Below, piece after piece: positions 15,506-54,908 of a stretch of 64,000 nt of DNA. The number at the start of each line of letters is the position of its first letter. The stretch's first letter is position 1. Below the pieces are notes generated by a model. The model was not told the origin of the DNA. It did no database searches and worked only from the letters and a program-made list of their open reading frames with translations. The DNA comes from Dehalococcoidia bacterium (GTDB taxonomy: Bacteria; Chloroflexota; Dehalococcoidia; GIF9; UBA5629), in NCBI GenBank assembly GCA_050011565.1, contig JBEKIW010000002.1, positions 384,001-448,000 of the forward strand, written 5' to 3'. The position numbers and the translations under genes are program-made.

Positions 15506-15585
15506 CTTTACATATTAACTTCGGAGGAAATTTTTGGCAAACTCAGGGATTTTCGGTGGGGCGAACTGCCTCAGTGGGAGATACC

Positions 15586-15765
15586 TCAGCCAGGGCTGCT
15601 AATGCAGGATTTGCCAGAGGAAGCGGTGCCGAAGGTGGAGAAAATCCTTCGCGGCTGTTTCTTGCCGCATTTGGGACATTTTAATTCGCTGTCGCTGTCC
15701 GTTATTTTGCGATGCGCTTCAAACTTTTCGCCGCAGGATGGGCACTTATATTCATAGATTGGCAT
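15586..15765 (-). CDS. FmdB-family zinc-ribbon protein (59 aa to first TGA); not in ORF track
   Basis: MPIYEYKCPSCGEKFE...LKCPKCG...RRIFSTFG...SCISSPG. Confidence 0.9.
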   Translation of the reverse strand: MPIYEYKCPSCGEKFEAHRKITDSDSELKCPKCGKKQPRRIFSTFGTASSGKSCISSPG

Positions 15766-15780
15766 AATTCCATTCTCCCA

Positions 15781-17055
15781 TTAAGCTAAAGCTTTTACTG
15801 CCAGCTCTGAGACGCTACTGGCTTCGACATTCAAGCCGTAATGCTCGCTTAGATCTCCGATTTGCTGACGGCAGTTATCGCAGGAAGTGATAACGAGGCT
15901 GGCACCGGTGCGTTTAACCTGCTCAGCCTTAAGCTTCCCCGCCTGCATGCGGATATCTAACCATTCCGGCTCGGCCACCAGTCCGCTGCCGGCGCCACAA
16001 CAATAGCTCTCCAGCCGGTTTGGCGTCATCTCTCGAAAATCCTTAACCGCGGCTCGGATTACACGTCGGGGTTCGTCGAAAATACCGCCTTTACGGCCCA
16101 AATTACAGGAGTCGTGATATGTGGTCGGCTGTCCATTCTTGGAGGAATCCAAGTGTAGACGCCCTTCTCTAACGTATTCATCGAGTACTTCTAGGATGCT
16201 GCGGACCCGAAACGGAAGCTGTCCAAACCATTTGGGAGCCTCCCAGCGCATAGTGGTGTAACCATGGCCGCACTCGGTGACGATGATCTCCTCAGCTTTA
16301 AGTTTTTTGGCCTCATTGATAACACGCCCGGTGATGCGCTTGGACTTGATGCCATCGGCCAGAAAAACGGCGTAGTTGGATGACTCGAACATGCCCAGGG
16401 TCCATGATTCCTTAGCTGCATTGAACAGTATAGCCTGAGGGACAATGGTATGAGCCCCGGCCAGGGGTACGTAAAGCATGCGAGCGCCCTTCTCTTCCAC
16501 CGGTATCCGGGCTTTGGAGCTGCCCAGGCGGTCCTGGACTTCCTTTTCCAGTTCTTTAACCTGCTCCCGATATATATCGCGGAATAGTTCAGCGTTCTCT
16601 TCTTTGGCAATGGCAGCGTTAGCCAGCTCCACCAGCATTTCCGGGGCATTGCCGGTGGCGGTGGCTATCGCCCTCATTATGCGCATGATTTCGGCTGTCT
16701 CCACGCCAAAGGGGCAGGCGAAAGTGCAACGGTGGCACAGCGTACAACTGGCAAAAGCAATCTCCGCCAGCTTGGACAACATCTCGTCGGTCGTCTCTTT
16801 GACGCCCACCCACCGCGGGAATGCGCGTCCCATGGGGTCGAAAAAGCGACGGTACAATCGCCGCACCATTTCGGCACGGTAATAGGGAGTGTGCTCCGTC
16901 CGGGGATTGGACTGGTAATAGTGACAGCTTTCGGTGCATATGCCGCAGCGGACACATACCTCTAGCGCCGTCAGCACCCTGCGGTCAACCAGATTGCCCA
17001 GCATTTCCCGGGCTATGGTTAGCTTATCTTTTTTTGTTTCTACTGCGCTACTCAT
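15781..17055 (-). CDS. DsrK/HdrD-like Fe-S oxidoreductase (two [4Fe-4S] motifs plus CCG domain)
   Basis: CVRCGICTESC, CTLCHRCTFACP, TECGHG, YHDSC, YCCGAG, TSCDNC; start at MSSAVETK overlaps the upstream stop. Confidence 0.88.
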   Translation of the reverse strand: MSSAVETKKDKLTIAREMLGNLVDRRVLTALEVCVRCGICTESCHYYQSNPRTEHTPYYRAEMVRRLYRRFFDPMGRAFPRWVGVKETTDEMLSKLAEIAFASCTLCHRCTFACPFGVETAEIMRIMRAIATATGNAPEMLVELANAAIAKEENAELFRDIYREQVKELEKEVQDRLGSSKARIPVEEKGARMLYVPLAGAHTIVPQAILFNAAKESWTLGMFESSNYAVFLADGIKSKRITGRVINEAKKLKAEEIIVTECGHGYTTMRWEAPKWFGQLPFRVRSILEVLDEYVREGRLHLDSSKNGQPTTYHDSCNLGRKGGIFDEPRRVIRAAVKDFREMTPNRLESYCCGAGSGLVAEPEWLDIRMQAGKLKAEQVKRTGASLVITSCDNCRQQIGDLSEHYGLNVEASSVSELAVKALA

Positions 17056-17680
17056 GTGTCCACTCCAGTACGCCGCGGCGCCCGAAGAACAAACCGACAA
17101 AGACGCGTTCGTAAAAGAAATAAATAAAGTGTTTAATCTTGCCGAATGGCGCGTAAGCCAGCGTTATGCCGGAGATAGCCCAGAATAGGGGTAAAAAGTC
17201 CGGTTTGATAGCGGATGCGGCGCCTGCTGCCAGGAATAGTGTCACCAGCGCCAGAGAGAAATAATCATCCGGGGTGCTTAGCAGCCGCATGGTTGGGTCG
17301 CCCAATCTTATGCCGAAACCTGCCACACCCAATACAGCGCCGACGCCGAAAAGAGCCGCTAAAGAGATGCGTAGCGGCAATATCATCTGCGTCAGCCATG
17401 GGCTGGCAATAAGAAACGCTGCGGCCACGAATATGCCAACATGAATGATTATGCCGCGTATATAAGCTACCCAATGCCGTCGAGCGCTCTCCTTGGCCCA
17501 CGGAGCCATGCCCAGAGTGAAAGCATAAAGGACGCCTTGTGCTGGAGAACGTTTGACTGGCGCTTGTTCAGACTGGTAGGGCCGGCGCTGAGCAGCGACA
17601 AGAACGTATAATACGCCAATAATAAAGATGACGGCACCAACCAGTGCTATTCCGGCGGTCACCATCTGCAACATACTCAT
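17048..17680 (-). CDS. NarI/DsrM-like membrane subunit (putative cytochrome b)
   Basis: About five TM segments, H in IIHVGI, RLLSTPDDY, PFGKIKH. Confidence 0.7.
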   Translation of the reverse strand: MSMLQMVTAGIALVGAVIFIIGVLYVLVAAQRRPYQSEQAPVKRSPAQGVLYAFTLGMAPWAKESARRHWVAYIRGIIIHVGIFVAAAFLIASPWLTQMILPLRISLAALFGVGAVLGVAGFGIRLGDPTMRLLSTPDDYFSLALVTLFLAAGAASAIKPDFLPLFWAISGITLAYAPFGKIKHFIYFFYERVFVGLFFGRRGVLEWTHE

Positions 17681-17919
17681 TTCACTTTCTTGATATGGAA
17701 CCTGATTAGCTTGCCATCTCTTTCGATGGAGATAAGCTCGTTGCCGGTGCTCTTGGTCCAGGCAGGTATATCTGCCAGTACACCAGGGTCGGTGGCCGTG
17801 GCTTCTAGTACTTTGCCCACCTCCATGGTTTTAATTGCCTGGCTCACCTTAACTATCGGGATAGGGCAAAGTAGACCCTCAAGATTTAGTTTAACATCTG
17901 CATTTGTTTGTCCTGGCAT
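17677..17919 (-). CDS. TusA-family sulfur carrier
   Basis: GLLCPIPI (CPxP), ATDPG..ADIPAW; start at MPGQT after GAGGAG. Confidence 0.92.
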   Translation of the reverse strand: MPGQTNADVKLNLEGLLCPIPIVKVSQAIKTMEVGKVLEATATDPGVLADIPAWTKSTGNELISIERDGKLIRFHIKKVK

Positions 17920-17935
17920 TATTTTCTCCTCATGC

Positions 17936-18412
17936 CTATACAAATAATGTCATCTTGGAGTGGAAAGCTTTCTCCAGCATGGTAGCCACTCCGCAAGACT
18001 CTTCGGCCTCGTCAATCAGGTGTTCCGCCTTTATCTCCATGACCTGCATGCTCATCTCGCAGGGCAGGAGCTTAACTCCCAGGTCGATGGCGGTCTGCCG
18101 GAGTTCCTCCAGCGGTGTTATTTTATGTGACTTCATCATTTGTTTGAACATCCACCGGCCGATGCCCCAGAAATTGAAACGCGACGGGCCGATAGTATTG
18201 ATACCGCCCCGGTTGAGGAGGCCCATCATGCGGCCGAAGAAGCCCTGACCTGTTAGATTTCCTTTCTGTATGGCTTTTATACCCCAGAAGGTGAAAAACA
18301 TATTGGTTTCTTTGCCGGCTGCGGCAGCTCCGATGGCGATATTGAAGGCTGCCATGACCTTGTCCATGTCACCGCTAAATACGATTATGGTTACACCATC
18401 TTCTTTTGCCAT
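17936..18412 (-). CDS. DsrE/DsrF/DrsH-like (DsrE2-type) sulfurtransferase
   Basis: IIVFSGDMDK, MFFTFWG, PCEMSM; start at MAKED after AAGGAG. Confidence 0.9.
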   Translation of the reverse strand: MAKEDGVTIIVFSGDMDKVMAAFNIAIGAAAAGKETNMFFTFWGIKAIQKGNLTGQGFFGRMMGLLNRGGINTIGPSRFNFWGIGRWMFKQMMKSHKITPLEELRQTAIDLGVKLLPCEMSMQVMEIKAEHLIDEAEESCGVATMLEKAFHSKMTLFV

Positions 18413-18627
18413 TTCTGTCTCCTTCACAATTATTAATACACGTTAGATGCGGCACCCTGTACCATGGGGTGGGTGCCGTGCGCCCCCTTAACCAAACTGA
18501 CATGAATTTACCCTGCTTACACCTCCTTCATAGCGTAAACGCGCTGACCTGATATTTATCAAGGTAATTGATGACCTTTTGTTATTTCCAACTTGCGTGC
18601 GAGGCTTCCAGCCTCATCTGTCTAGCT

Positions 18628-18810
18628 TCAGCCGCCGCCGAAGGCGAACTGAGTAAAGAACCTTAACTTATCGGTAGGGCTGTCTAATTTTTCAACTTTG
18701 CCGCCACCGCAGCGGGGGCACTTCACGTTCTTATCGTCTTTCACATTATCCAGATTGGGTTTCTTAAATGTGACGCGACATTCATTACATCCGTATTCCT
18801 GGACTTGCAT
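18628..18810 (-). CDS. FmdB-like zinc-ribbon protein; possible Sec extension to 18622
   Basis: EYGCNEC...VKCPRCG; SD AAGGAG; ends GGG-TGA-AGC-TAG. Confidence 0.8.
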   Translation of the reverse strand: MQVQEYGCNECRVTFKKPNLDNVKDDKNVKCPRCGGGKVEKLDSPTDKLRFFTQFAFGGG

Positions 18811-18834
18811 TGTATATCTCCTTTAACTCTGAAA

Positions 18835-19167
18835 TTAAGCTACCAGCCTCTCGGCTAGCTGTTTGTTCTTCTCCATCCGGTCGAGCAGTATCTCATGCAC
18901 CATGTCACAGGCATCGCCGATTTTGGGGTCGCTGAGGCTGTAGTAGACACTGGTCCCTTCTCGCCGGAACTGCACCACCCCTTTGTCCCTGAGAATCGCC
19001 AGATTACGGGAGACAACCGCCTGAGGAAACTCGAGCACCCTTGCCAGCTCGCCCACAGTCGTCTCACCCTGTCGCAGCTCATCGATGATGATAAGCCGCT
19101 TGGCGTCAGCGAAGGTCTTGCATAGTTCCGCCTTTAGTGCGTAAAGTTCAAGATTGTGTCTGGCCAA
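18835..19167 (-). CDS. ArsR/SmtB-family transcriptional regulator
   Basis: AELCKTFAD.KRL.I..., VS.NLA.LR..G.V..RREG..VYY.L. Confidence 0.92.
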   Translation of the reverse strand: MARHNLELYALKAELCKTFADAKRLIIIDELRQGETTVGELARVLEFPQAVVSRNLAILRDKGVVQFRREGTSVYYSLSDPKIGDACDMVHEILLDRMEKNKQLAERLVA

Positions 19168-19194
19168 TGGGCACCTTCCTCATGGTTAATACAA

Positions 19195-19239
19195 ATATAT
19201 ATATAGACGTATATTATCATATTGTGTGGGCATTGTCAA
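19195..19239 (-). promoter_or_regulatory. ArsR operon promoter with overlapping AT-rich palindromic putative operator
   Basis: TTGACA-17-TAATAT followed by ATATA-cgtc-TATAT. Confidence 0.5.
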
Positions 19240-19266
19240 ACCACCTATCCCCGGTGGGGAAATCCC

Positions 19267-19460: not shown

Positions 19461-21005
19461 ATGGCCAGGTACATAATCGCCCATGATGTAGGCACCAGCG
19501 GCAATAAAGCGGTTCTGGTGGATACTAAGGGGCGCGTCCACGGTAAATGTATTGAGCCTTACAAAACGTATTTTCCGAAGCCAGGATGGGCGGAGCAGGA
19601 ACCGTCAGACTGGTGGAAGGCGGTAACGCGGACGACCAGGCTTCTCCTCGACCGGACAAATATATCTCCTAAAGACATTCTGTGCGTTACTTTCGGTACG
19701 CAGATGCTCGGCGTCATCCCCATTGACTCCAAAGGTGTGCCGCTGAGGCGTGCCATTATCTGGCTTGACAACCGCGCCGGTGAACAGGCGGAGCGGCTGA
19801 TGAGAAAATTCCTCGGACCTCGTGTCTTCGCCTTAATTGCCGGCACTGCCTTATGCGGCAAAGACGGCATGCCCAAGCTACTCTGGCTGAAAGGGGAAGA
19901 GCCTGATATTTACCACAAGATGTGTTGTTTTCTGGATACCTCGGGTTATCTTTTCTATCGCAGCACCGGCAACATGGCCATGGAGTGGACCGGCGCTTCA
20001 GTCTTCGGGCTCGACCTGAAAAAGAAAACATGGATGACCAGTATTTTCAGCTATGTCGGACTTGATACCGAGAAGCTGCCCCCGTTAGTACGATCGATCG
20101 ATAAGGTCGGTGAACTTACCAGAGAAGCTGCCAGGGAATACGGACTTTTGCCCGGCACACCGGTTATGGCTGGCGCCGGCGATGCTCCCTGCGCCGTAGT
20201 TGGCTCCGGCGCCGTCGGCGAAGGCGAAGGTCATGTTTATCTGGGAACCTCCGGCTGGGTGGGCGTGGTCACCAGGCGAATACTGCAGGGTAAATGCGGC
20301 GCCGCCACCATTCATTCGGCAGACCCCGACAAGACGTTTCTATTTGCCGAGACTGAAGCAGCCGGCGGCTGCATCCAGTGGATCGCCGACCAGTTTTACA
20401 AAGCGGAAAAAAAGGACCCGAATATACCCAATGTTTATGCTCTGATGGACGATGAGGTGGCTAAAATTCCACCGGGCTCCAATTATCTTCTTTTCACCCC
20501 CTGGATTTATGGAGAAAGAGCTCCCATTAACGATTGTTATGTCCGTGCCTCATTTCTCAACTTGAGCGCCGAGCATACCCGCGAGGATATGCTGCGTGCC
20601 GTATATGAAGGTGTGGCTTATAACATCAGGTGGATTGTGGAAATCGTAGAGAAAGAGTTCAAGTTGCCACTGCCGCAACTCAGGGTTATAGGTGGAGGCG
20701 CCAAGGGCAAACCCTGGATGCAGATAATGGCTGATGTTACCGGCAGAAAAATTGAGACCGTCTGCGACCCTCAGGAAGCTGGCGCCGTAGGTGCCGCACT
20801 GATAGCGGCGGTTGGCCTGGGAATATACCCGGACTTCGAGTCGCTGAAAAAGGTAATCAAAGTGGACAGGGTATTTGAGCCACAGCCCCGGAATTCGGAT
20901 ATTTATAATACGCTGTATGGTTCGTATCATGAAGTCTACAGTAGCTTACGTAATTTCTATAGAAGGCTGAATAAGGAGCGATTCGACAAGGCGGTGTGTG
21001 AGTAG
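19461..21005 (+). CDS. FGGY-family carbohydrate kinase (xylulokinase-like)
   Basis: AHDVGTSGNK, PGWAEQ.P.DWW, IIWLDNRA, GAGDA, YLGTSGW, GERAP, GGGAK; TG-N-TATAAT at 19432-19440. Confidence 0.93.
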   Translation: MARYIIAHDVGTSGNKAVLVDTKGRVHGKCIEPYKTYFPKPGWAEQEPSDWWKAVTRTTRLLLDRTNISPKDILCVTFGTQMLGVIPIDSKGVPLRRAIIWLDNRAGEQAERLMRKFLGPRVFALIAGTALCGKDGMPKLLWLKGEEPDIYHKMCCFLDTSGYLFYRSTGNMAMEWTGASVFGLDLKKKTWMTSIFSYVGLDTEKLPPLVRSIDKVGELTREAAREYGLLPGTPVMAGAGDAPCAVVGSGAVGEGEGHVYLGTSGWVGVVTRRILQGKCGAATIHSADPDKTFLFAETEAAGGCIQWIADQFYKAEKKDPNIPNVYALMDDEVAKIPPGSNYLLFTPWIYGERAPINDCYVRASFLNLSAEHTREDMLRAVYEGVAYNIRWIVEIVEKEFKLPLPQLRVIGGGAKGKPWMQIMADVTGRKIETVCDPQEAGAVGAALIAAVGLGIYPDFESLKKVIKVDRVFEPQPRNSDIYNTLYGSYHEVYSSLRNFYRRLNKERFDKAVCE

Positions 21006-21022
21006 ATATCCACTAATTCTTA

Positions 21023-21074
21023 TAGGGGCGAGGCTTTAGCCTCGCCCAGTGCGACCTTAAAAGGTCGCACCTAC
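21023..21074. repeat. REP-like double palindrome, family G
   Basis: GGGCGAGGCT-TT-AGCCTCGCCC and GTGCGACCTT-A-AAAGGTCGCAC; degenerate copy at about 30269-30308. Confidence 0.75.
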
Positions 21075-21144
21075 ATGAGACGATGATGAGTGATGCTAAA
21101 CAAGGGAAAGATTCGATAAGACAGTGTGTGAAGGAGGTGTTTAA

Positions 21145-22455
21145 ATGAATGGCGATGATATTTTGAGCCTGCCCATTGCCCTGCCCGACGGCGTGGATTA
21201 TGACGACTACGTTATCGGCACCTATCTGGTCTCTTATCCAGCCTCGCTGCCTCTCCCTATAATTGCGCCTTTCCTGGCTATCGAGCAGAGCACGGGGACG
21301 TGGGTGGCTGTGCCCGGCGAGACCGAGGAAGTCCGACGTCAGCATATCGCCAAGGTGGTGGGTGTTTATGAAATGCCCGACTACGAGTCCACCGTGCCGG
21401 CGAATCTACAGACCAGGCAGTGGTTCGTCCAGGTGGCTTATCCCGAGGTAAACATCGGTGAGCAGATACCCATGCTGCTGACCACAGTGGTGGGCAACAT
21501 CTCCATGGGCGGCGAAATAAAGCTGGTGGACATGCGTTTTCCGAAGAAATTCGCTGCCGGTTTCAAGGGCCCCAAATTCGGCGTCGACGGCATACGTAAG
21601 CTTCTGGGAATTCCGAAGCGACCACTGCTAAATAACATGATAAAGCCCTGCACCGGCTATACCTGCGAAGTCGGGGCTGAACTGTTTCGCAAAGCGGCCG
21701 CCGGCGGCTGCGACATCGTTAAGGACGACGAGCTTATTGCCGACGCCTCGTTCAACTCGGCGCTGGAGCGCGTCAAGCTTTATATGCAGGTTGAGAAGCA
21801 GGTCTTCGAGGAAACCGGTGAACATACGCTGTACACAGTGAATGTAACGGATAAAATACCAAAGGTCTTCGAGACTGCCAAACGCGCCGTGGAATTGGGC
21901 TGCAACGCGCTGATGATAAACTACCTGGCTGTCGGCTTTCCGGTGTTGCAGGCGCTGGCTGAAGACACCAGCCTGAATGTGCCCATACTGGCACATATGG
22001 ACGTGGCCGGCGCTCTGTACATGTCGCCTTATCACGGCATGAGCTCTCATCTGGTGCTGGGCAAATTGCCGCGGCTAGCAGGCGCCGACGTAGTTGTTAT
22101 CCCCGCCCCCTACGGCAAGGCGCCGGTAATTGACTATAAGTTCAAAAATGTTGCCCGAAACCTGTTATTCCCGCTATATAACCTGAAGCCCACGTTCCCC
22201 ATGGCATCGGGCGGCATCACCCCGTCCATGGTGCCGCAGGTGATGATGGCGCTGGGCAATGACATAGTCATAGGTTCCGGAGGCGGCATTCATGCGCATC
22301 CCCAGGGTGCCATCGCCGGAGGCAAAGCCTTCCGGCAGGCGATAGATGCTACCATGCAGGGCATTCCGCTGGCCGACTATGCCAAGGAGCATGAGGAGCT
22401 GGCGATTTCACTAAAGGAGTGGGTCGACCCGTTCAGCAGAGGAATCAGAATTTGA
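21145..22455 (+). CDS. RuBisCO-like protein (form IV)
   Basis: EQSTGTW, GPKFG, IKPCTG (K177 replaced by C), VKDDE, AHM (R295 replaced), YGK, ASGG, GGGIHAHP.G. Confidence 0.92.
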   Translation: MNGDDILSLPIALPDGVDYDDYVIGTYLVSYPASLPLPIIAPFLAIEQSTGTWVAVPGETEEVRRQHIAKVVGVYEMPDYESTVPANLQTRQWFVQVAYPEVNIGEQIPMLLTTVVGNISMGGEIKLVDMRFPKKFAAGFKGPKFGVDGIRKLLGIPKRPLLNNMIKPCTGYTCEVGAELFRKAAAGGCDIVKDDELIADASFNSALERVKLYMQVEKQVFEETGEHTLYTVNVTDKIPKVFETAKRAVELGCNALMINYLAVGFPVLQALAEDTSLNVPILAHMDVAGALYMSPYHGMSSHLVLGKLPRLAGADVVVIPAPYGKAPVIDYKFKNVARNLLFPLYNLKPTFPMASGGITPSMVPQVMMALGNDIVIGSGGGIHAHPQGAIAGGKAFRQAIDATMQGIPLADYAKEHEELAISLKEWVDPFSRGIRI

Positions 22456-22468
22456 AAGGAGCAGTAAG

Positions 22469-23686
22469 ATGTCTAAAGTTACGGTTTTAGGCGGCAGTGG
22501 TGCGGTTGGCAGCATAGCCTCGGAGACGCTGGCTTCGAGCGGTGTATTCTCCGAAGTAACGGTGGCTGATATAAATATTGCAGCCGCCAGAAAGGTAGCC
22601 GGCAAGCTAAAGGGGAGTAAGGTCTCTGCTGTCGAATTCGATGCCGATGGCCCCCAGAGCCTGAGAAAGGTAATCGGCGGCTCATCAGTGGTACTGAACT
22701 GCGTGGGTCCTTTCTACAAGTACGGGCCCACCATACTAAAAACGGTGATAGAAGCCAGAATAAACTATGTTGATATCTGTGATGATTTCGATGCTACCGA
22801 GAAGCTGCTGGCAATGGATGACAAGGCCAAGAAAGCCGGCGTTTCAGCGCTCATCGGCATGGGCAGCTCTCCCGGCGTAGCTAATATTCTGGTCAGGTTC
22901 TGCGCTGATTCCCTGCTCGACCAGGTGGAGGCGGTGGATATATACCACGCCCACGGCGGCGAAAAAATTGAAGGACCGGCGGTAGTGAAACACCGGATTC
23001 ATTCCATGCAGATAGGTATTCCGATGTTCCTCGACGGCAAATTTACTACCGTGAATCTATTTGACGACAGCGGCAAGGCATTGGAAGAGGAGGCCGAGTT
23101 TAAAGATGTCGGCACCTACAACGTCTACGGCTATCCGCATCCCGAGACAATAACCCTGCCTAAATATTTGAAGGGTTTGAAGAGGGTAACCAACCTGGGG
23201 CTGGTGCTGCCTCCGGCTTACGCCGAGCTGATAAAGGGTATGGTCAGGCTGGGCGTTACCGATGAGAAACCCATCGAAGTACAGGGCCATAAGATTGTGC
23301 CGCTGGAATTTGCCGTAGCCTATATACTTTCCCAGCGGGAGAGATTGCTGAAAGAGGCCGGGATTAACCAGCCTATGGGCTGCTTGAAGATCGTGGTTAA
23401 AGGGGTCAAGGACGGCGGCAAGAACACTTATATCTTCTCCATGTCTTCCCGGGGGCAGGGTATGGGCGAAGGCACGGGCATACCGGCCGCTATTGGCGCC
23501 ATAATTATGGGTACGGGAAAGATTACGCTGAAAGGCGTTTTGCCGCCCGAGGCCTGCGTCAACCCCATGGACCTGCTGGAGCTGGCTAAGACCAAAGTAA
23601 AGACGGTTGGCGGCAAGGGCTTCCCCATTTCCATCGAGCATATCGATAAGGACGGCAAGTCGCAGAAGTTGAACCTGTTTAGCTAG
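22469..23686 (+). CDS. saccharopine dehydrogenase-like NAD(P)-dependent oxidoreductase
   Basis: GGSGAVG, NCVGPFY, YVDICDD, GMGSSPG, HPETITLP, GVLPPEA. Confidence 0.88.
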   Translation: MSKVTVLGGSGAVGSIASETLASSGVFSEVTVADINIAAARKVAGKLKGSKVSAVEFDADGPQSLRKVIGGSSVVLNCVGPFYKYGPTILKTVIEARINYVDICDDFDATEKLLAMDDKAKKAGVSALIGMGSSPGVANILVRFCADSLLDQVEAVDIYHAHGGEKIEGPAVVKHRIHSMQIGIPMFLDGKFTTVNLFDDSGKALEEEAEFKDVGTYNVYGYPHPETITLPKYLKGLKRVTNLGLVLPPAYAELIKGMVRLGVTDEKPIEVQGHKIVPLEFAVAYILSQRERLLKEAGINQPMGCLKIVVKGVKDGGKNTYIFSMSSRGQGMGEGTGIPAAIGAIIMGTGKITLKGVLPPEACVNPMDLLELAKTKVKTVGGKGFPISIEHIDKDGKSQKLNLFS

Positions 23687-34743: not shown

Positions 34744-37700
34744 TCATATCTTTCCGAGCTTTCGATCAGGTAGTAATAACCTGGGGTCACTTTGTTCAAT
34801 TGCCATCATTTGGCAGCAGCGTTGTCTTTCTACACGATCCGATTCATATAACATAAGCCTATGGAAGACAAGGCGCCTTAATATGGCTCTTGCCACGTTA
34901 TTTTTCTCGATGTCTTTGAGCAATTCGGATAAATTATCTAAAGGTAAGCTCGATTGGCAATCCAACTTAATACTTACATCAATAAGGCGAACAGATATTA
35001 GATGACCATATTTGTCAAAAATACTCTTATAAGTGGGGTATAGTTTCTCGGTTCCAACATATTTTGCGACGCCATAAACCCCAGCAAGTGAAACTTGCAT
35101 CGTCATAATAAAAGCAACAGCTTTTGCGGCTATCTCTAATTGAGAATCTGTTGGCCAGCGGCGTCTATCCGGAGGCAACTTAAGCAATTCCTTATCCAAT
35201 CTGTATCTCATATTATCTTTAACTTCACTAACAAATTCCTTAATAGTATTGGCATAGAACGTTAGAGTTTCCTTGAGGACCCTTAAACCTAATAAATAAC
35301 TTTCCTGAACTAAAGAATATTTATCCTGCCCTTCCCAAGAAGTCGCGAAATTCTTGACAATCTGTCCCATTATCCGGATCATTTTGAAGGCTATCGTAAT
35401 AGATTTAAACTGTTCGTCAATATTTTCATTATCTCTAGTATATTGAATATCTATTTTGCGTTCTCTTCTTTTGTTATCTTCCCGTTTTTGTATTTCCTCT
35501 CGAATTTCTCTTGGTTTTCCTTTAGGTAATTTAAGGGTCAGGTCGAAGCCCTCTTTATTTATAAAATATAGATCCGTATCTAGATCAGTGGGTTCATTAT
35601 TGGAAAACATTTGTTTCGCCGTATACAATAAAATTTCTCGAATGTAAGGATTCTCGGACAGGTAACTTAGAAAAAGCAAAATACTCTCGTTTTCTTCGAT
35701 ATCTATATTATTAACCAAATCAGATATTATATTTTTAACCTGCTTCTCTTCCGAAGGTCTCTGCAATCGTATATTTAATGCCCTGGCAACAAAATAATAA
35801 TGGATGCAAGGATACCTATACTCGATATAATCATTTGATGGTATAAGAATATTTGCTGATGTAAGATCCACAATCAAATCATCGTAAGGCAAATCTTTAT
35901 ATCTAAGTGAGAACTTTTCTAGATATGATTTATGAAATATATAAAATTCTTGAGGAGTTATTCTATTTATTCTATTTTGAAACATCTCAAAGGAAAGTTC
36001 GGATAGGTATCTATATTTTGCATTTAGGTCAGATATTTTCCTTGGTGATTTATGTAAGGAAGTTGTTATAAGCCACTCATAAAAAAAGCCGAAGGAGCCT
36101 CTATCTTCGCCAAATGGTGTAGGTATCCCGCCAACATCACTTTCGGTGGATTGTGCGATAGTGAGTATATAAAAGGGATAAGACGGGGCGAGGCTAGGTC
36201 TCAATATCGCTTCGGCTTTTTCCTCTACCTGCTTGACCTCATGTTCTAGTTGAATCTCATCGATAACATCTTCCCGTCCTAACAAAAGCCATTTCTCAAT
36301 AAGATTACTTCTGGCAGCGCTACCGAGCTCAGATAACCCTAGTCGCCTGCAGGAGAGTAAAAAGTCATTCCGTTCCGTCTCGATAATATCTTGCACGGAA
36401 ATAATATTGGATGACGAAATAAGGGTAGTTCCAAATTGCCGGTCAATATAATCGAAAAGATTCAGTTTCGCTTTTCTACTTAGGATTGCTTCTTGGAGAT
36501 CATCGAGAATGAGTGCCCTTTTACTACTTTCTAACATCCAAAAATCGTCACGATATTCAGGACCATATTCTTTTTCAAAAGCTTCGCCAAAAAGGCGCAT
36601 GAGTTTTTCAGGGTTTCCTGTATTAATACTTTTACCATCAATCCACAATGGCACTACGTTTTTATCCTTATATTTTTTGAACATAATCTTTAGAAGAGAA
36701 GTCTTACCAGCGGATTCCGGCCCGAATAATAATATTCTATTGTTAGCCAACAAATATTCTAAAGCTCTATCGGAACTAATTAAATCGGTTTCTAATTTTT
36801 CAGATATATCCTCAAGATCTGGAAATAAGTATATGTCTTCAATATTTAGGTCCTTTTTTCTAGGATGGCTAAAAGGAACGCCAGGTGCGCTAATAAAATC
36901 TGAAAAAGACTTTTTAAGTGTAAATATATCTTGTCTAAGCACCCTACTTCGCGGAATATCTACCCATTCGAATTCCTCCGCTTTATATATAGTATTATTC
37001 CAAACATGCATAGTGTATTTCATCTTACGATCAGAAACATCAAGTAATATGGTATTAAAGGTGCTCTCCTCGCCACCTTGCAATTCACCACCTTCAATAT
37101 ATTGACGAGTTTCTCCACGTAAATATTTTGTCTCATGATACGAAGCAGCATGTTCATGACCTGTAATTATTATATTGGAGTTAAATTCAATCATTTGGCG
37201 AAATGCCTTCGAAGCCTCGGCTTGAATCCAATTATATGGATGATGCATAACTGAGAACACCAAATCAAACGAACTATCCCTGAGATTGTGTTGAACAAAT
37301 TGTAATGGAAATAGGATATAATCTACTCGTTTATCAGGTAATGACATCCAAGCAGTGTTGTAACATTCGAACTTGAGCCTAATATTGTCGCTAATGGAAA
37401 AATTCCGCTCCAAGACAAACCTTTCACGTCCGTGTTTGATTTCTATGGACTGAATTTTTGCTGACCATCGGAAAAAGTTTTGCTGAGGTTCAACGCAGCG
37501 TAATAAAAGCGCCTCTTCATTCATCAGTTGGTGATTTAATTTGATTTCTTCAACGAGTCGTTCTCGTTCTTTATCATGTTCTTTTACATCGAAGCAACAA
37601 TCATGATTACCGGGAACTATAATATAGTAAATATGTGCGGATTCTTTCGCTAACCTGATCTTCTTTTCCAGCTCAGTGAAAAACAATTGCGCTATTTTAT

Positions 37701-37872
37701 ATTCTTCTTGTTTCCCCGAGTTTGCAATATCTCCCGTAACAATTATCCATATGTTCTCAATACTGGCCAATTGACTCTTCACTGCATTACCGATGGCTGC
37801 GACTCTATCCAGTATCTCATCTTCCTTATTCTTCAAATGAAAATCGCTTAGATGAATCAATAATATATTCAT
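34744..37872 (-). CDS. metallophosphoesterase-STAND/NACHT-type NTPase fusion (1042 aa), candidate defence protein
   Basis: HLSDFH, TGDIA, PGNHD, MHHP, GHEH; Walker A GPESAGKT, Walker B LILDD; AT-rich. Confidence 0.82.
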   Translation of the reverse strand: MNILLIHLSDFHLKNKEDEILDRVAAIGNAVKSQLASIENIWIIVTGDIANSGKQEEYKIAQLFFTELEKKIRLAKESAHIYYIIVPGNHDCCFDVKEHDKERERLVEEIKLNHQLMNEEALLLRCVEPQQNFFRWSAKIQSIEIKHGRERFVLERNFSISDNIRLKFECYNTAWMSLPDKRVDYILFPLQFVQHNLRDSSFDLVFSVMHHPYNWIQAEASKAFRQMIEFNSNIIITGHEHAASYHETKYLRGETRQYIEGGELQGGEESTFNTILLDVSDRKMKYTMHVWNNTIYKAEEFEWVDIPRSRVLRQDIFTLKKSFSDFISAPGVPFSHPRKKDLNIEDIYLFPDLEDISEKLETDLISSDRALEYLLANNRILLFGPESAGKTSLLKIMFKKYKDKNVVPLWIDGKSINTGNPEKLMRLFGEAFEKEYGPEYRDDFWMLESSKRALILDDLQEAILSRKAKLNLFDYIDRQFGTTLISSSNIISVQDIIETERNDFLLSCRRLGLSELGSAARSNLIEKWLLLGREDVIDEIQLEHEVKQVEEKAEAILRPSLAPSYPFYILTIAQSTESDVGGIPTPFGEDRGSFGFFYEWLITTSLHKSPRKISDLNAKYRYLSELSFEMFQNRINRITPQEFYIFHKSYLEKFSLRYKDLPYDDLIVDLTSANILIPSNDYIEYRYPCIHYYFVARALNIRLQRPSEEKQVKNIISDLVNNIDIEENESILLFLSYLSENPYIREILLYTAKQMFSNNEPTDLDTDLYFINKEGFDLTLKLPKGKPREIREEIQKREDNKRRERKIDIQYTRDNENIDEQFKSITIAFKMIRIMGQIVKNFATSWEGQDKYSLVQESYLLGLRVLKETLTFYANTIKEFVSEVKDNMRYRLDKELLKLPPDRRRWPTDSQLEIAAKAVAFIMTMQVSLAGVYGVAKYVGTEKLYPTYKSIFDKYGHLISVRLIDVSIKLDCQSSLPLDNLSELLKDIEKNNVARAILRRLVFHRLMLYESDRVERQRCCQMMAIEQSDPRLLLPDRKLGKI

Positions 37873-54362: not shown

Positions 54363-54908
54363 TCACGACTGAGAAAATTGACGTTCCTTCAACTTCTCAA
54401 CAATGTTGTCTTCTCTGACCAGTGCATTGCCTATGCCATATTTTTTAAGAAGCCTCAGCGGCACGCAGCAGCATGAGCAGCAGTTACATATCGCATAGAA
54501 GTCATGCTGCCATTTGACGATGGTGTGTATGAGGCCATTTTGGTGGCACTGCTTTAAGATATCCTTAGCCTCCTGCTTTGTTATCTCTCGATAGTCGTGA
54601 GGTCTTCCTTCCATGAATATGTTTCGGCTAAGTCCGACAATTATTTCCGCGTTTAGCGGATTGTCGCAATTTTTGAACACAGCCCGACAAGTGCATGGGC
54701 CCAAAGCCAACCCATCTGAACTGTCCACAATTTCATTAGCCTCACGTAGGTTGAGCAGATAGGCTGAACTGACGTTTTTGCCGTATGAATTGGCTACCTT
54801 TCTGACCAGGCTCCCTATCACAGGTATTCTAGTCCACTTTGCCTGGAAGATGTAGTATCTAAGCGCCAACTCACGATACCTACTGTATAGCTTCAGCGAA
54901 TGGTGCAT
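54363..54908 (-). CDS. Cys-rich Fe-S (ferredoxin-like) protein
   Basis: CTCR....NC, GLIHT, AICNCCSCCC. Confidence 0.75.
   Translation of the reverse strand: MHHSLKLYSRYRELALRYYIFQAKWTRIPVIGSLVRKVANSYGKNVSSAYLLNLREANEIVDSSDGLALGPCTCRAVFKNCDNPLNAEIIVGLSRNIFMEGRPHDYREITKQEAKDILKQCHQNGLIHTIVKWQHDFYAICNCCSCCCVPLRLLKKYGIGNALVREDNIVEKLKERQFSQS

Follow-up and report, generated by a model that had tools for sequence, protein, structure and literature searches.

The FmdB-A gene and its cluster

The 64,000-nt stretch of DNA analysed here (the window) carries on its minus strand a gene cluster in the order ArsR, FmdB-A, DsrE2-like, TusA, TmcC/HmcE-like membrane subunit, DsrK/TmcB-like Fe-S subunit and FmdB-B. 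A genome scan returned six related loci (L001-L006), all in Dehalococcoidia or Chloroflexota MAGs, a group from which the window probably comes too, and five with a complete FmdB-A gene; in L006 the gene is cut by a contig end, and the six genes compared below are those of the window and the five complete loci. The features from ArsR to the Fe-S subunit are:

18835..19167, minus strand: ArsR/SmtB-family repressor, first gene of the cluster (NF033788, 78 bits, cut-off 55)
18818..18823, minus strand: FmdB-A ribosome-binding site AAGGAG, with an AGGAG/GGAG core upstream in all six loci
18622..18810, minus strand: FmdB-A, a CxxC-x19-CxxC zinc ribbon with its ATG at 18810; 62 amino acids ending FGGG-U-S if TGA is read as selenocysteine (Sec, U)
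18628..18630, minus strand: predicted Sec codon TGA, residue 61; TGA in all six complete genes, aligned with a Cys of the homologue P0073
18622..18624, minus strand: second in-frame stop, two codons past the TGA; TAG in five of six genes, TAA in one
18601..18615, minus strand: predicted bacterial SECIS element GAGGCT-GGA-AGCCTC, loop G 19 nt past the TGA, of the geometry of the published model
17936..18412, minus strand: DsrE2-like sulfur carrier (Pfam DrsE_2, 138.8 bits; NCBIfam DsrE2, 61.6 of 210, below cut-off)
17677..17919, minus strand: TusA/SirA-like sulfurtransferase with a CPIP motif (Pfam TusA, 71.5 bits)
17048..17680, minus strand: TmcC/HmcE/DsrM-like membrane subunit (TmcC 48.2 of 240 bits, HmcE 39 of 275, both below cut-off)
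15781..17055, minus strand: DsrK/TmcB/HmcF-like Fe-S subunit with two 4Fe-4S motifs, a TECGH Cys and one CCG motif (DsrK 245.6 of 400, TmcB 230.5 of 735)

The DsrE2-like gene is linked to FmdB-A in 6/6 loci, and the gene immediately upstream is ArsR in the window and in L002-L006, as it is in L001, where just its last codons are present. L005 had been considered as an ArsR and FmdB-A pair without sulfur genes, a candidate that was dropped as the start of a DsrE2-like gene precedes an assembly gap there. Both cysteines of the conserved ArsR pair (ELCK, ACD/E) are present in all six orthologues. Neither the TusA-like nor the DsrE2-like gene reaches the NCBIfam cut-off for TusA, YedF or DsrE2. 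Since the DsrK score is likewise below its NCBIfam cut-off while the TECGH and CCG motifs are present, the Fe-S subunit is described as DsrK/TmcB-like rather than as DsrK; its motifs are invariant in the four loci compared (4/4). Neither dsrAB nor dsrC was found among the window ORFs scanned. In the membrane subunit, three His near predicted membrane segments (at about 69, 80 and 184) are kept in 4/4 loci, and a Trp stands where we assume the fourth haem ligand of NarI/DsrM to be expected, so that it may bind only one haem b.

Upstream of arsR, at 19186-19240, there is a good sigma-70-like promoter, TTGACA-17-TAATAT with TG, and a divergent one towards an FGGY kinase gene. The gap at 18430-18600 (minus strand) contains a GGCACCC...GGGTGCC repeat and ATCAA-N5-TTGAT, which we take to resemble an ArsR-type operator, and an internal promoter is possible; the same gap in L002-L004 holds a different conserved block, with CATAAT.

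The protein and the 3' hairpin

Under standard annotation FmdB-A is a protein of 60 amino acids that ends at the first TGA. The sequence-only reading of this DNA had called it FmdB-like, and this label is right, although the TIGR02605 score is borderline (31.3 and 31.1 bits at a cut-off of 31.3) and the Pfam Zn_ribbon_8 score of 30.1 bits is below the cut-off of 34.4. Three orthologues reach 23.5-27.7 bits with TIGR02605, and the A-type proteins, scoring around or below this cut-off, are therefore regarded as a divergent subfamily. The structure model consists of a three-stranded ribbon, a helix at 45-56, amphipathic with a hydrophobic moment of 0.48 over 46-56, and a tail (59-62) at pLDDT <50, which by this model is probably mobile. 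The four cysteines are presumably zinc ligands, which would leave Sec as the only free chalcogen in FmdB-A. A fold search gave no match at E 0.001 or better and listed generic zinc ribbons, HypA and rubredoxins.

The 3' end encodes FAFGGG with the glycine codons GGC GGC GGC, followed by TGA, AGC and TAG. The hairpin, in the roughly 200-nt gap separating FmdB-A from the DsrE2-like gene, is made up of a 5' arm GAGGCT (18615-18610), a loop GGA (18609-18607) and a 3' arm AGCCTC (18606-18601). Its 5' arm starts 12 nt past the TGA, with six bases between the TAG and the arm, and the earlier description of this codon order and hairpin was confirmed on the minus strand, as were the G-led loop and the lack of a U-tract. 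An intrinsic terminator was rejected on this account, and no terminator-like site was called at the hairpin. Rfam at the gathering threshold gave no match across the window.

The hairpin is part of the minimum-energy fold in all five stretches folded, and the z-scores of the hairpin alone against shuffles, from -0.47 to -1.84, are not significant. Our SECIS-like filter required a stem of at least 4 pairs, G among the first two loop bases and a loop start 16-22 nt past the codon; among the 2003 TGA triplets of the window, 49 pass it at -5 kcal/mol and 13 at -8, with FmdB-A itself at -8.3. What lifts this hairpin above chance is its conservation in relatives.

Conservation of the TGA codon and the hairpin

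In all six complete A genes, whose proteins are 55-83% identical, the order is Gly-TGA-Gly/Ser-TAG/TAA, a variable spacer and a hairpin with a G in its loop. The codons are GGC-TGA throughout, then GGT (five genes) or AGC (one), then the second stop; the residue after U is Gly in 5/6, the Ser being peculiar to the window, and the consensus tail reads G-G-U-G-stop. Pairwise identity amounts to 34% in the 6-nt spacer, 38% in the six nucleotides past the stem, and 80% and 86% in the hairpin arms, and the loop G lies 18-19 nt from the TGA in all six loci. Five core pairs are kept in 6/6, with A-U replaced by G-U in two and G-C by C-G in one once the L004 gap is placed by hand in the spacer. As to covariation, 88.6% of cells are paired, but 332 of 500 shuffles of the six sequences score as high, which is not significant.

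The published bacterial SECIS (bSECIS) model, as set out in the consulted part of PMC13188914, has a loop of 3-9 nt, a stem of 4-16 bp, a G at loop position 1 or 2, a distance of 16-37 nt past the UGA and an MFE of at most -7.5. Applied through our own implementation rather than bSECISearch, it accommodates FmdB-A of the window (a 3-nt loop led by G, a 7-bp stem, a distance of 18 nt and an MFE of -10.9). The geometry fits 6/6 A genes and the 48-nt MFE limit 5/6, L004 reaching -7.2; in L001 the hairpin is absent from the 48-nt MFE fold, and the isolated hairpins of L001, L004 and L005 are weak (-5.5 to -6.5 kcal/mol). Our filter passes nine of ten FmdB genes, against 3/208 other TGA-ending, 8/238 TAA-ending and 11/251 TAG-ending ORFs, counting shadow ORFs and all lengths from 50 aa upwards. 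When the window and L001-L006 were scanned for hidden selenoproteins with this filter, 13 ORF ends came up besides the FmdB genes; these 13 were rejected, being either shadow frames or ordinary stops whose read-through is not conserved. A covariance model built from the six A loci recovers its own six and otherwise gives short matches only, which fall on the Gly-TGA portion of FmdB-B in L004 (best E 0.02); it does not find the hairpins of the FmdB-B genes or of Thermomicrobium roseum (see below) at full length.

A conserved TGA is by itself not decisive for Sec. It is also kept by two of 18 other orthologous genes, the RuBisCO-like gene (6/6) and TusA (5/5), in TusA because of an ATGA overlap and in the RuBisCO-like gene because of an adjacent ribosome-binding site; neither has a hairpin at a fixed position. 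TAA or TAG at this column with no conserved hairpin had been named beforehand as evidence against a hidden selenoprotein, and what is found instead is TGA plus hairpin in 6/6, together with a Cys homologue at the column, so that the proposal is well supported. The expected alternation of TGA with Cys is seen in part: TGA is constant in the six genes, and Cys occurs once, in the distant and weak match P0073.

Protein homologues

A first protein search gave 22 matches; leaving aside the window's protein itself, 19 of them are full-length, and these all end at this GG column. From 74 matches, a set of 41 single-ribbon A-like proteins was drawn, with the window entry in it and three fragments, double-ribbon proteins and canonical FmdB left out. 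GG is the end of 36 of these, FG or YG of three, GGS of one and GG-C-SSKGGFS of one; the last is P0073 (29%, E 7e-4), in which the Cys of GG-C-S is aligned with the predicted Sec. Among the 14 double-ribbon or related matches listed, four end in C-G, one in C-G-A and five in GG, which fits a penultimate Cys/Sec alternation as far as protein sequence can suggest it. Within the tandem double zinc-ribbon group (P0027-P0057), ends of C-G or C-P-P-G-G suggest the same alternation. FmdB-A gave no tblastn match against plasmids.

A second gene, FmdB-B

At the far end of the cluster lies a further FmdB gene, probably recoded, that the sequence-only reading missed:

15571..15765, minus strand: FmdB-B, a canonical FmdB zinc ribbon (TIGR02605, 71 bits, cut-off reached)
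15558..15572, minus strand: weak SECIS-like hairpin GAGGC-AGTTC-GCCCC with one mismatch; the filter is passed in three orthologues and not in the window

With the TGA at 15588-15586 recoded, the protein would end SC-ISSPG-U-GISH-stop. The tail G-TGA-GIS[HR]-stop is found in 4/4 genes, namely in the window, L002 (13100-13303), L003 (8935-9138) and L004 (13197-13406); all four share the first TGA, whereas their final stops differ (TGA/TAA/TAG/TAA). The Sec contexts are SSPG-U or TSHG-U, with one Cys 6-10 residues ahead of Sec. From these sequences FmdB-B is probably the second selenoprotein of the cluster, and the window copy, with its shorter tail and weaker hairpin, is perhaps decaying.

Among the 120 B-like proteins listed of 145 (P0076-P0195), the last residue is T in 57 and G in 37. 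Those with T mostly end PT or ST, a few residues past a conserved Cys, and may be cut at a Sec codon. One protein, P0102, reads SHG-W-GISH at the B column, with Trp in place of the predicted Sec, and has also lost a zinc ligand (KYPSC).

Other genomes and the Sec machinery

Outside these loci, the T. roseum gene TRD_RS12930 (L007 2992-3230, on the megaplasmid NC_011961.1) ends SCSTGGG-TGA-AIRW-TGA, and RefSeq stops it at the first TGA. Its hairpin, GCGGGCC-GTG-GGCTCGC, has 8 bp, a GTG loop and -12.3 kcal/mol and is close to that of L002, in a genome rich in G+C, where such a hairpin is cheaper. The gene order is ArsR and the zinc ribbon, then DUF302, an MBL-fold hydrolase and a rhodanese, and no DsrMK-like gene is annotated in the 40 kb read around it. 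This context suggests a role tied to sulfane sulfur generally rather than to DsrMK. As T. roseum DSM 5159 carries the pattern, recoding could be tested in a named strain. An FmdB gene on a Chlorohelix plasmid (L008 3001-3246) ends NFGG-TGA with no hairpin; GG-TGA alone thus does not imply a SECIS element, and this end may be a true GG end or a relic. Four further plasmid FmdB genes, from Proteobacteria, differ in tails and contexts.

By tblastn, SelA and SelB are absent from the window and L001-L007, with only IF2 and TypA GTPase matches, and ARAGORN found no tRNA genes in the window or L001-L006. SelA compared with plasmids gave 151 records, and T. roseum is not among the 60 listed. Table S1 of BSepDB does include T. 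roseum, but by the available text this table comprises all genomes examined and not Sec users (PMC13326102). The same source places two Dehalococcoidia among its ten selenoprotein-richest genomes, with 49 and 46 selenoprotein genes, and Dehalogenimonas alkenigignens is recorded in the part consulted of PMC4918011 as having selC, Sec-synthesis genes and a Sec elongation factor. Sec use in the class is not universal, with none in one Dehalococcoidales single-cell genome according to the portion consulted of PMC4959059.

Is the TGA recoded?

Taken together, the sequence evidence makes it very probable that the FmdB-A TGA is read as Sec and that the product is a 62-residue selenoprotein. SelB, acting on the hairpin in the 3' untranslated gap, would have the TGA read as Sec, and translation would end two codons later. 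The counts stand on six A genes, four B genes and T. roseum, with one residue past U in A; the criteria for a Sec family in the consulted text of bioRxiv 10.1101/2022.07.06.499078 are at least 10 examples, 100% TGA and similarity through U.

That the TGA is a true stop, leaving a Gly-Gly-COOH end, perhaps a ThiS/MoaD-like thiocarboxylate or conjugation tail, and that the hairpin serves RNA stability or is a palindrome of the DNA, is improbable. This reading draws on the terminal GG of most single-ribbon matches (36/41) in a sulfur-carrier cluster, on the other genes in which TGA is kept for different reasons, on the Chlorohelix gene and on the covariation result. Against it, the modelled FmdB-A fold is a zinc ribbon and not a beta-grasp, and no ThiF/MoeB-type activating enzyme was found among the window ORFs scanned. 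It also leaves unexplained the TGA in 10/10 Dehalococcoidia A and B genes, the in-frame second stop, the fixed hairpin distance, the Cys homologue and the B ends, which are HG or PG instead of GG. Far less probable again is a reading of TGA as Trp or Cys, through a changed code or suppression. P0102 shows that the tail can be coding, but with one zinc ligand lost this protein may be decayed or misread; ordinary genes stop at TGA (11/53 non-overlapping ORFs of at least 100 aa), the TusA TGA overlaps the next ATG with unconserved read-through, and 'UGA' is absent from the main text of PMC5424206, on Chloroflexi cysteine coding.

Relation to known selenoproteins

FmdB selenoproteins as such are on record. 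The GOS survey, in the text available, reported one with a CxxU motif on the basis of two marine sequences (PMC2398784); a 2026 table covering 119 families enters the family as UxxU (PMC13188914), and the section consulted of PMC9312934 enters it as U/CxxU. These share with the present genes the zinc-ribbon family, an in-frame UGA and a predicted bacterial SECIS element. They differ in that, going by texts and tables, their Sec belongs to a CxxU or UxxU motif, whereas here the four ribbon cysteines are intact and Sec would lie in a C-terminal Gly tail, as FGGG-U in A and as SSPG-U or TSHG-U in B, and the residue three places ahead of it is not a Cys. The review PMC13188914, in the part consulted, treats Sec at another position of one domain as defining a separate subfamily. 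The 'FmdB' of PMC11227280 was rejected as a relative, being by the text consulted an unrelated formylmethanofuran dehydrogenase.

For a terminal Sec, SaoC, which ends CU-stop, and KCU-star come closest as precedents, with Sec at the extreme C-terminus and the SECIS element in the 3' non-coding region; in the text consulted, the SaoC hairpin has a 7-bp stem and a GGU loop at a distance similar to that of FmdB-A (bioRxiv 10.1101/2022.07.06.499078). Their domains are unrelated, however, and they carry a CU dipeptide and UGA-UAG in place of GG-U-G/S. Human SELENOS ends, when mature, in -Gly-Gly-Sec-Gly, and failed decoding leaves -Gly-Gly, according to the portion consulted of PMC7090344, while five of the six A genes predict G-G-U-G-stop. 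This is a likeness of four residues to a eukaryotic membrane protein with a eukaryotic -Gly-Gly degron pathway; no homology is claimed, and the likeness is presumably convergence.

What emerges is probably a selenoprotein of FmdB type whose C-terminal tail is Gly-Sec; one sulfur-handling cluster has it twice, and it seemingly occurs in another Chloroflexota class as well. In the literature searched, with most subscription journals and the BSepDB family table outside its scope, we found no report of a GG-U-G tail in FmdB and no description of a TusA/DsrE2 relay cluster with zinc-ribbon selenoproteins, and none of the NCBIfam (June 2026) selenoprotein models reached its cut-off for the recoded proteins. 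It would be a new subfamily that pipelines miss because Sec is one to four residues from the end; C-terminal Sec is not predictable by PGAP, as stated in the part consulted of bioRxiv 10.1101/2022.07.06.499078. It would also offer a first clue to the function of the FmdB zinc-ribbon family, which is poorly understood, and a candidate substrate for DsrMK-like complexes in Chloroflexota without DsrAB.

Proposed function

TusA and DsrE2 carry persulfide, and some ArsR proteins sense persulfide via two cysteines. The best overall explanation of the selenoprotein, for which we see about an even chance, is that it links TusA/DsrE2 to the membrane complex as a shuttle, working with sulfane sulfur or through Se-S bonds, and that ArsR controls it. 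An exposed selenol would be a fast chalcogen acceptor and donor; Sec would take sulfane sulfur from the active Cys of TusA or DsrE2, or form a mixed Se-S bond with it, and the non-cubane centre of the DsrK-like subunit would re-reduce Sec with quinol electrons supplied via the membrane subunit, so that sulfide is released. What is observed is the gene order and the motifs, and every chemical step is our inference; given recoding, these steps have an even to slightly better prospect of being right. A complex prediction of the DsrK-like subunit with 60-residue FmdB-A, with a score of 0.02 and a mark of 0.32, gives no verdict.

The sequence-only reading proposed a C-terminal arm like that of DsrC for a DsrMK-like enzyme. 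In its favour are the link to the DsrE2-like gene in every locus, the low-confidence tail and the TECGH Cys and CCG motif, which the part consulted of PMC10861901 ties to DsrC trisulfide reduction. FmdB-A further resembles DsrC in being small and soluble, in having a chalcogen as its penultimate residue behind a Gly (the DsrC end being ...TGCV) and in being encoded beside a DsrK-like TECGH/CCG subunit. But DsrC needs two Cys for the trisulfide made by DsrAB (PMC10861901, as far as consulted), whereas FmdB-A has one free chalcogen, and the T. roseum unit has no DsrMK-like gene annotated in the 40 kb read; moreover, FmdB-A matches no DsrC domain in NCBIfam or Pfam. Two redox Cys in a C-terminal arm are not present, A having no non-ligand Cys and B one. 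A strictly DsrC-like role of FmdB-A is thus the weaker claim, because its tail has no partner Cys. By analogy, the comparison suits FmdB-B better, where the Cys 6-10 residues before Sec would make it the better candidate for an intramolecular Cys-S-Sec bridge like the DsrC trisulfide. DsrM proteins are known from Chloroflexi without DsrAB, according to the available part of PMC10504309.

Two other roles for a selenoprotein deserve consideration. It could be a sensor or co-regulator for ArsR, with Sec detecting sulfane sulfur or oxidants and signalling to the two Cys of the repressor. ArsR stands directly upstream in all the loci and in T. roseum, whose downstream genes differ, its two Cys are kept in 6/6, and the family is named 'putative regulatory protein', which is a source label only. 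However, a position next to the operon's first gene is no evidence of contact, and FmdB-B, with the same tail, is encoded at the opposite end of the cluster, after the DsrK-like gene; such a sensor is unlikely. Quite unlikely, too, is a Sec that binds a soft metal or an Fe-S cluster in a chaperone or detoxifier, for example one maturing the DsrK-like clusters. C-terminal CU or CC is read as metal-binding in SAO and HgcB systems (bioRxiv 10.1101/2022.07.06.499078, in the text consulted), one gene of the FmdB family has nif and Fe-S genes (grxD, BolA, 2Fe-2S) around it, and the fold search listed HypA and rubredoxins, none significant. Yet the cluster has no metal exporter or reductase, FmdB-A has a lone Sec and not CU, and its neighbours are sulfur carriers.

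Beyond the shuttle proposed for this cluster, many of the small FmdB zinc ribbons of Chloroflexota whose database entries end in GG, G or PT/ST might be truncated selenoproteins, forming an unrecognised selenium-tipped class that replaces DsrC and carries sulfane sulfur as Sec-S-SH to DsrMK-like complexes in organisms without DsrAB, with selenium supply switching the C-terminus between GG and GG-U-G, the tail also found in human SELENOS; this conjecture is a long way from likely, at perhaps one chance among several.

Other features of the window and related loci

At 54363-54908 (minus strand), a 181-aa protein has no Pfam match, CNCCSCCC and other Cys, and a TGA end with no SECIS-like hairpin by the filter. 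L002 carries a second sulfur-related cluster at 7-1156, with CsoR/RcnR-like, TusA-like and MvhD-like genes, the last with an altered N-terminal Cys motif (labels from reading translations). Divergent from arsR, 19461-23686 (plus strand) encodes an FGGY-family kinase, a RuBisCO-like protein that reaches no NCBIfam equivalog cut-off and a saccharopine dehydrogenase-like protein; these genes are conserved in all five loci extending that far and belong to an uncharacterised sugar-phosphate pathway. Finally, 34744-37872 (minus strand) encodes a 1042-aa calcineurin-like phosphoesterase fused to an nSTAND NTPase, which with its low GC of 38-40% looks like a horizontally acquired defence gene.
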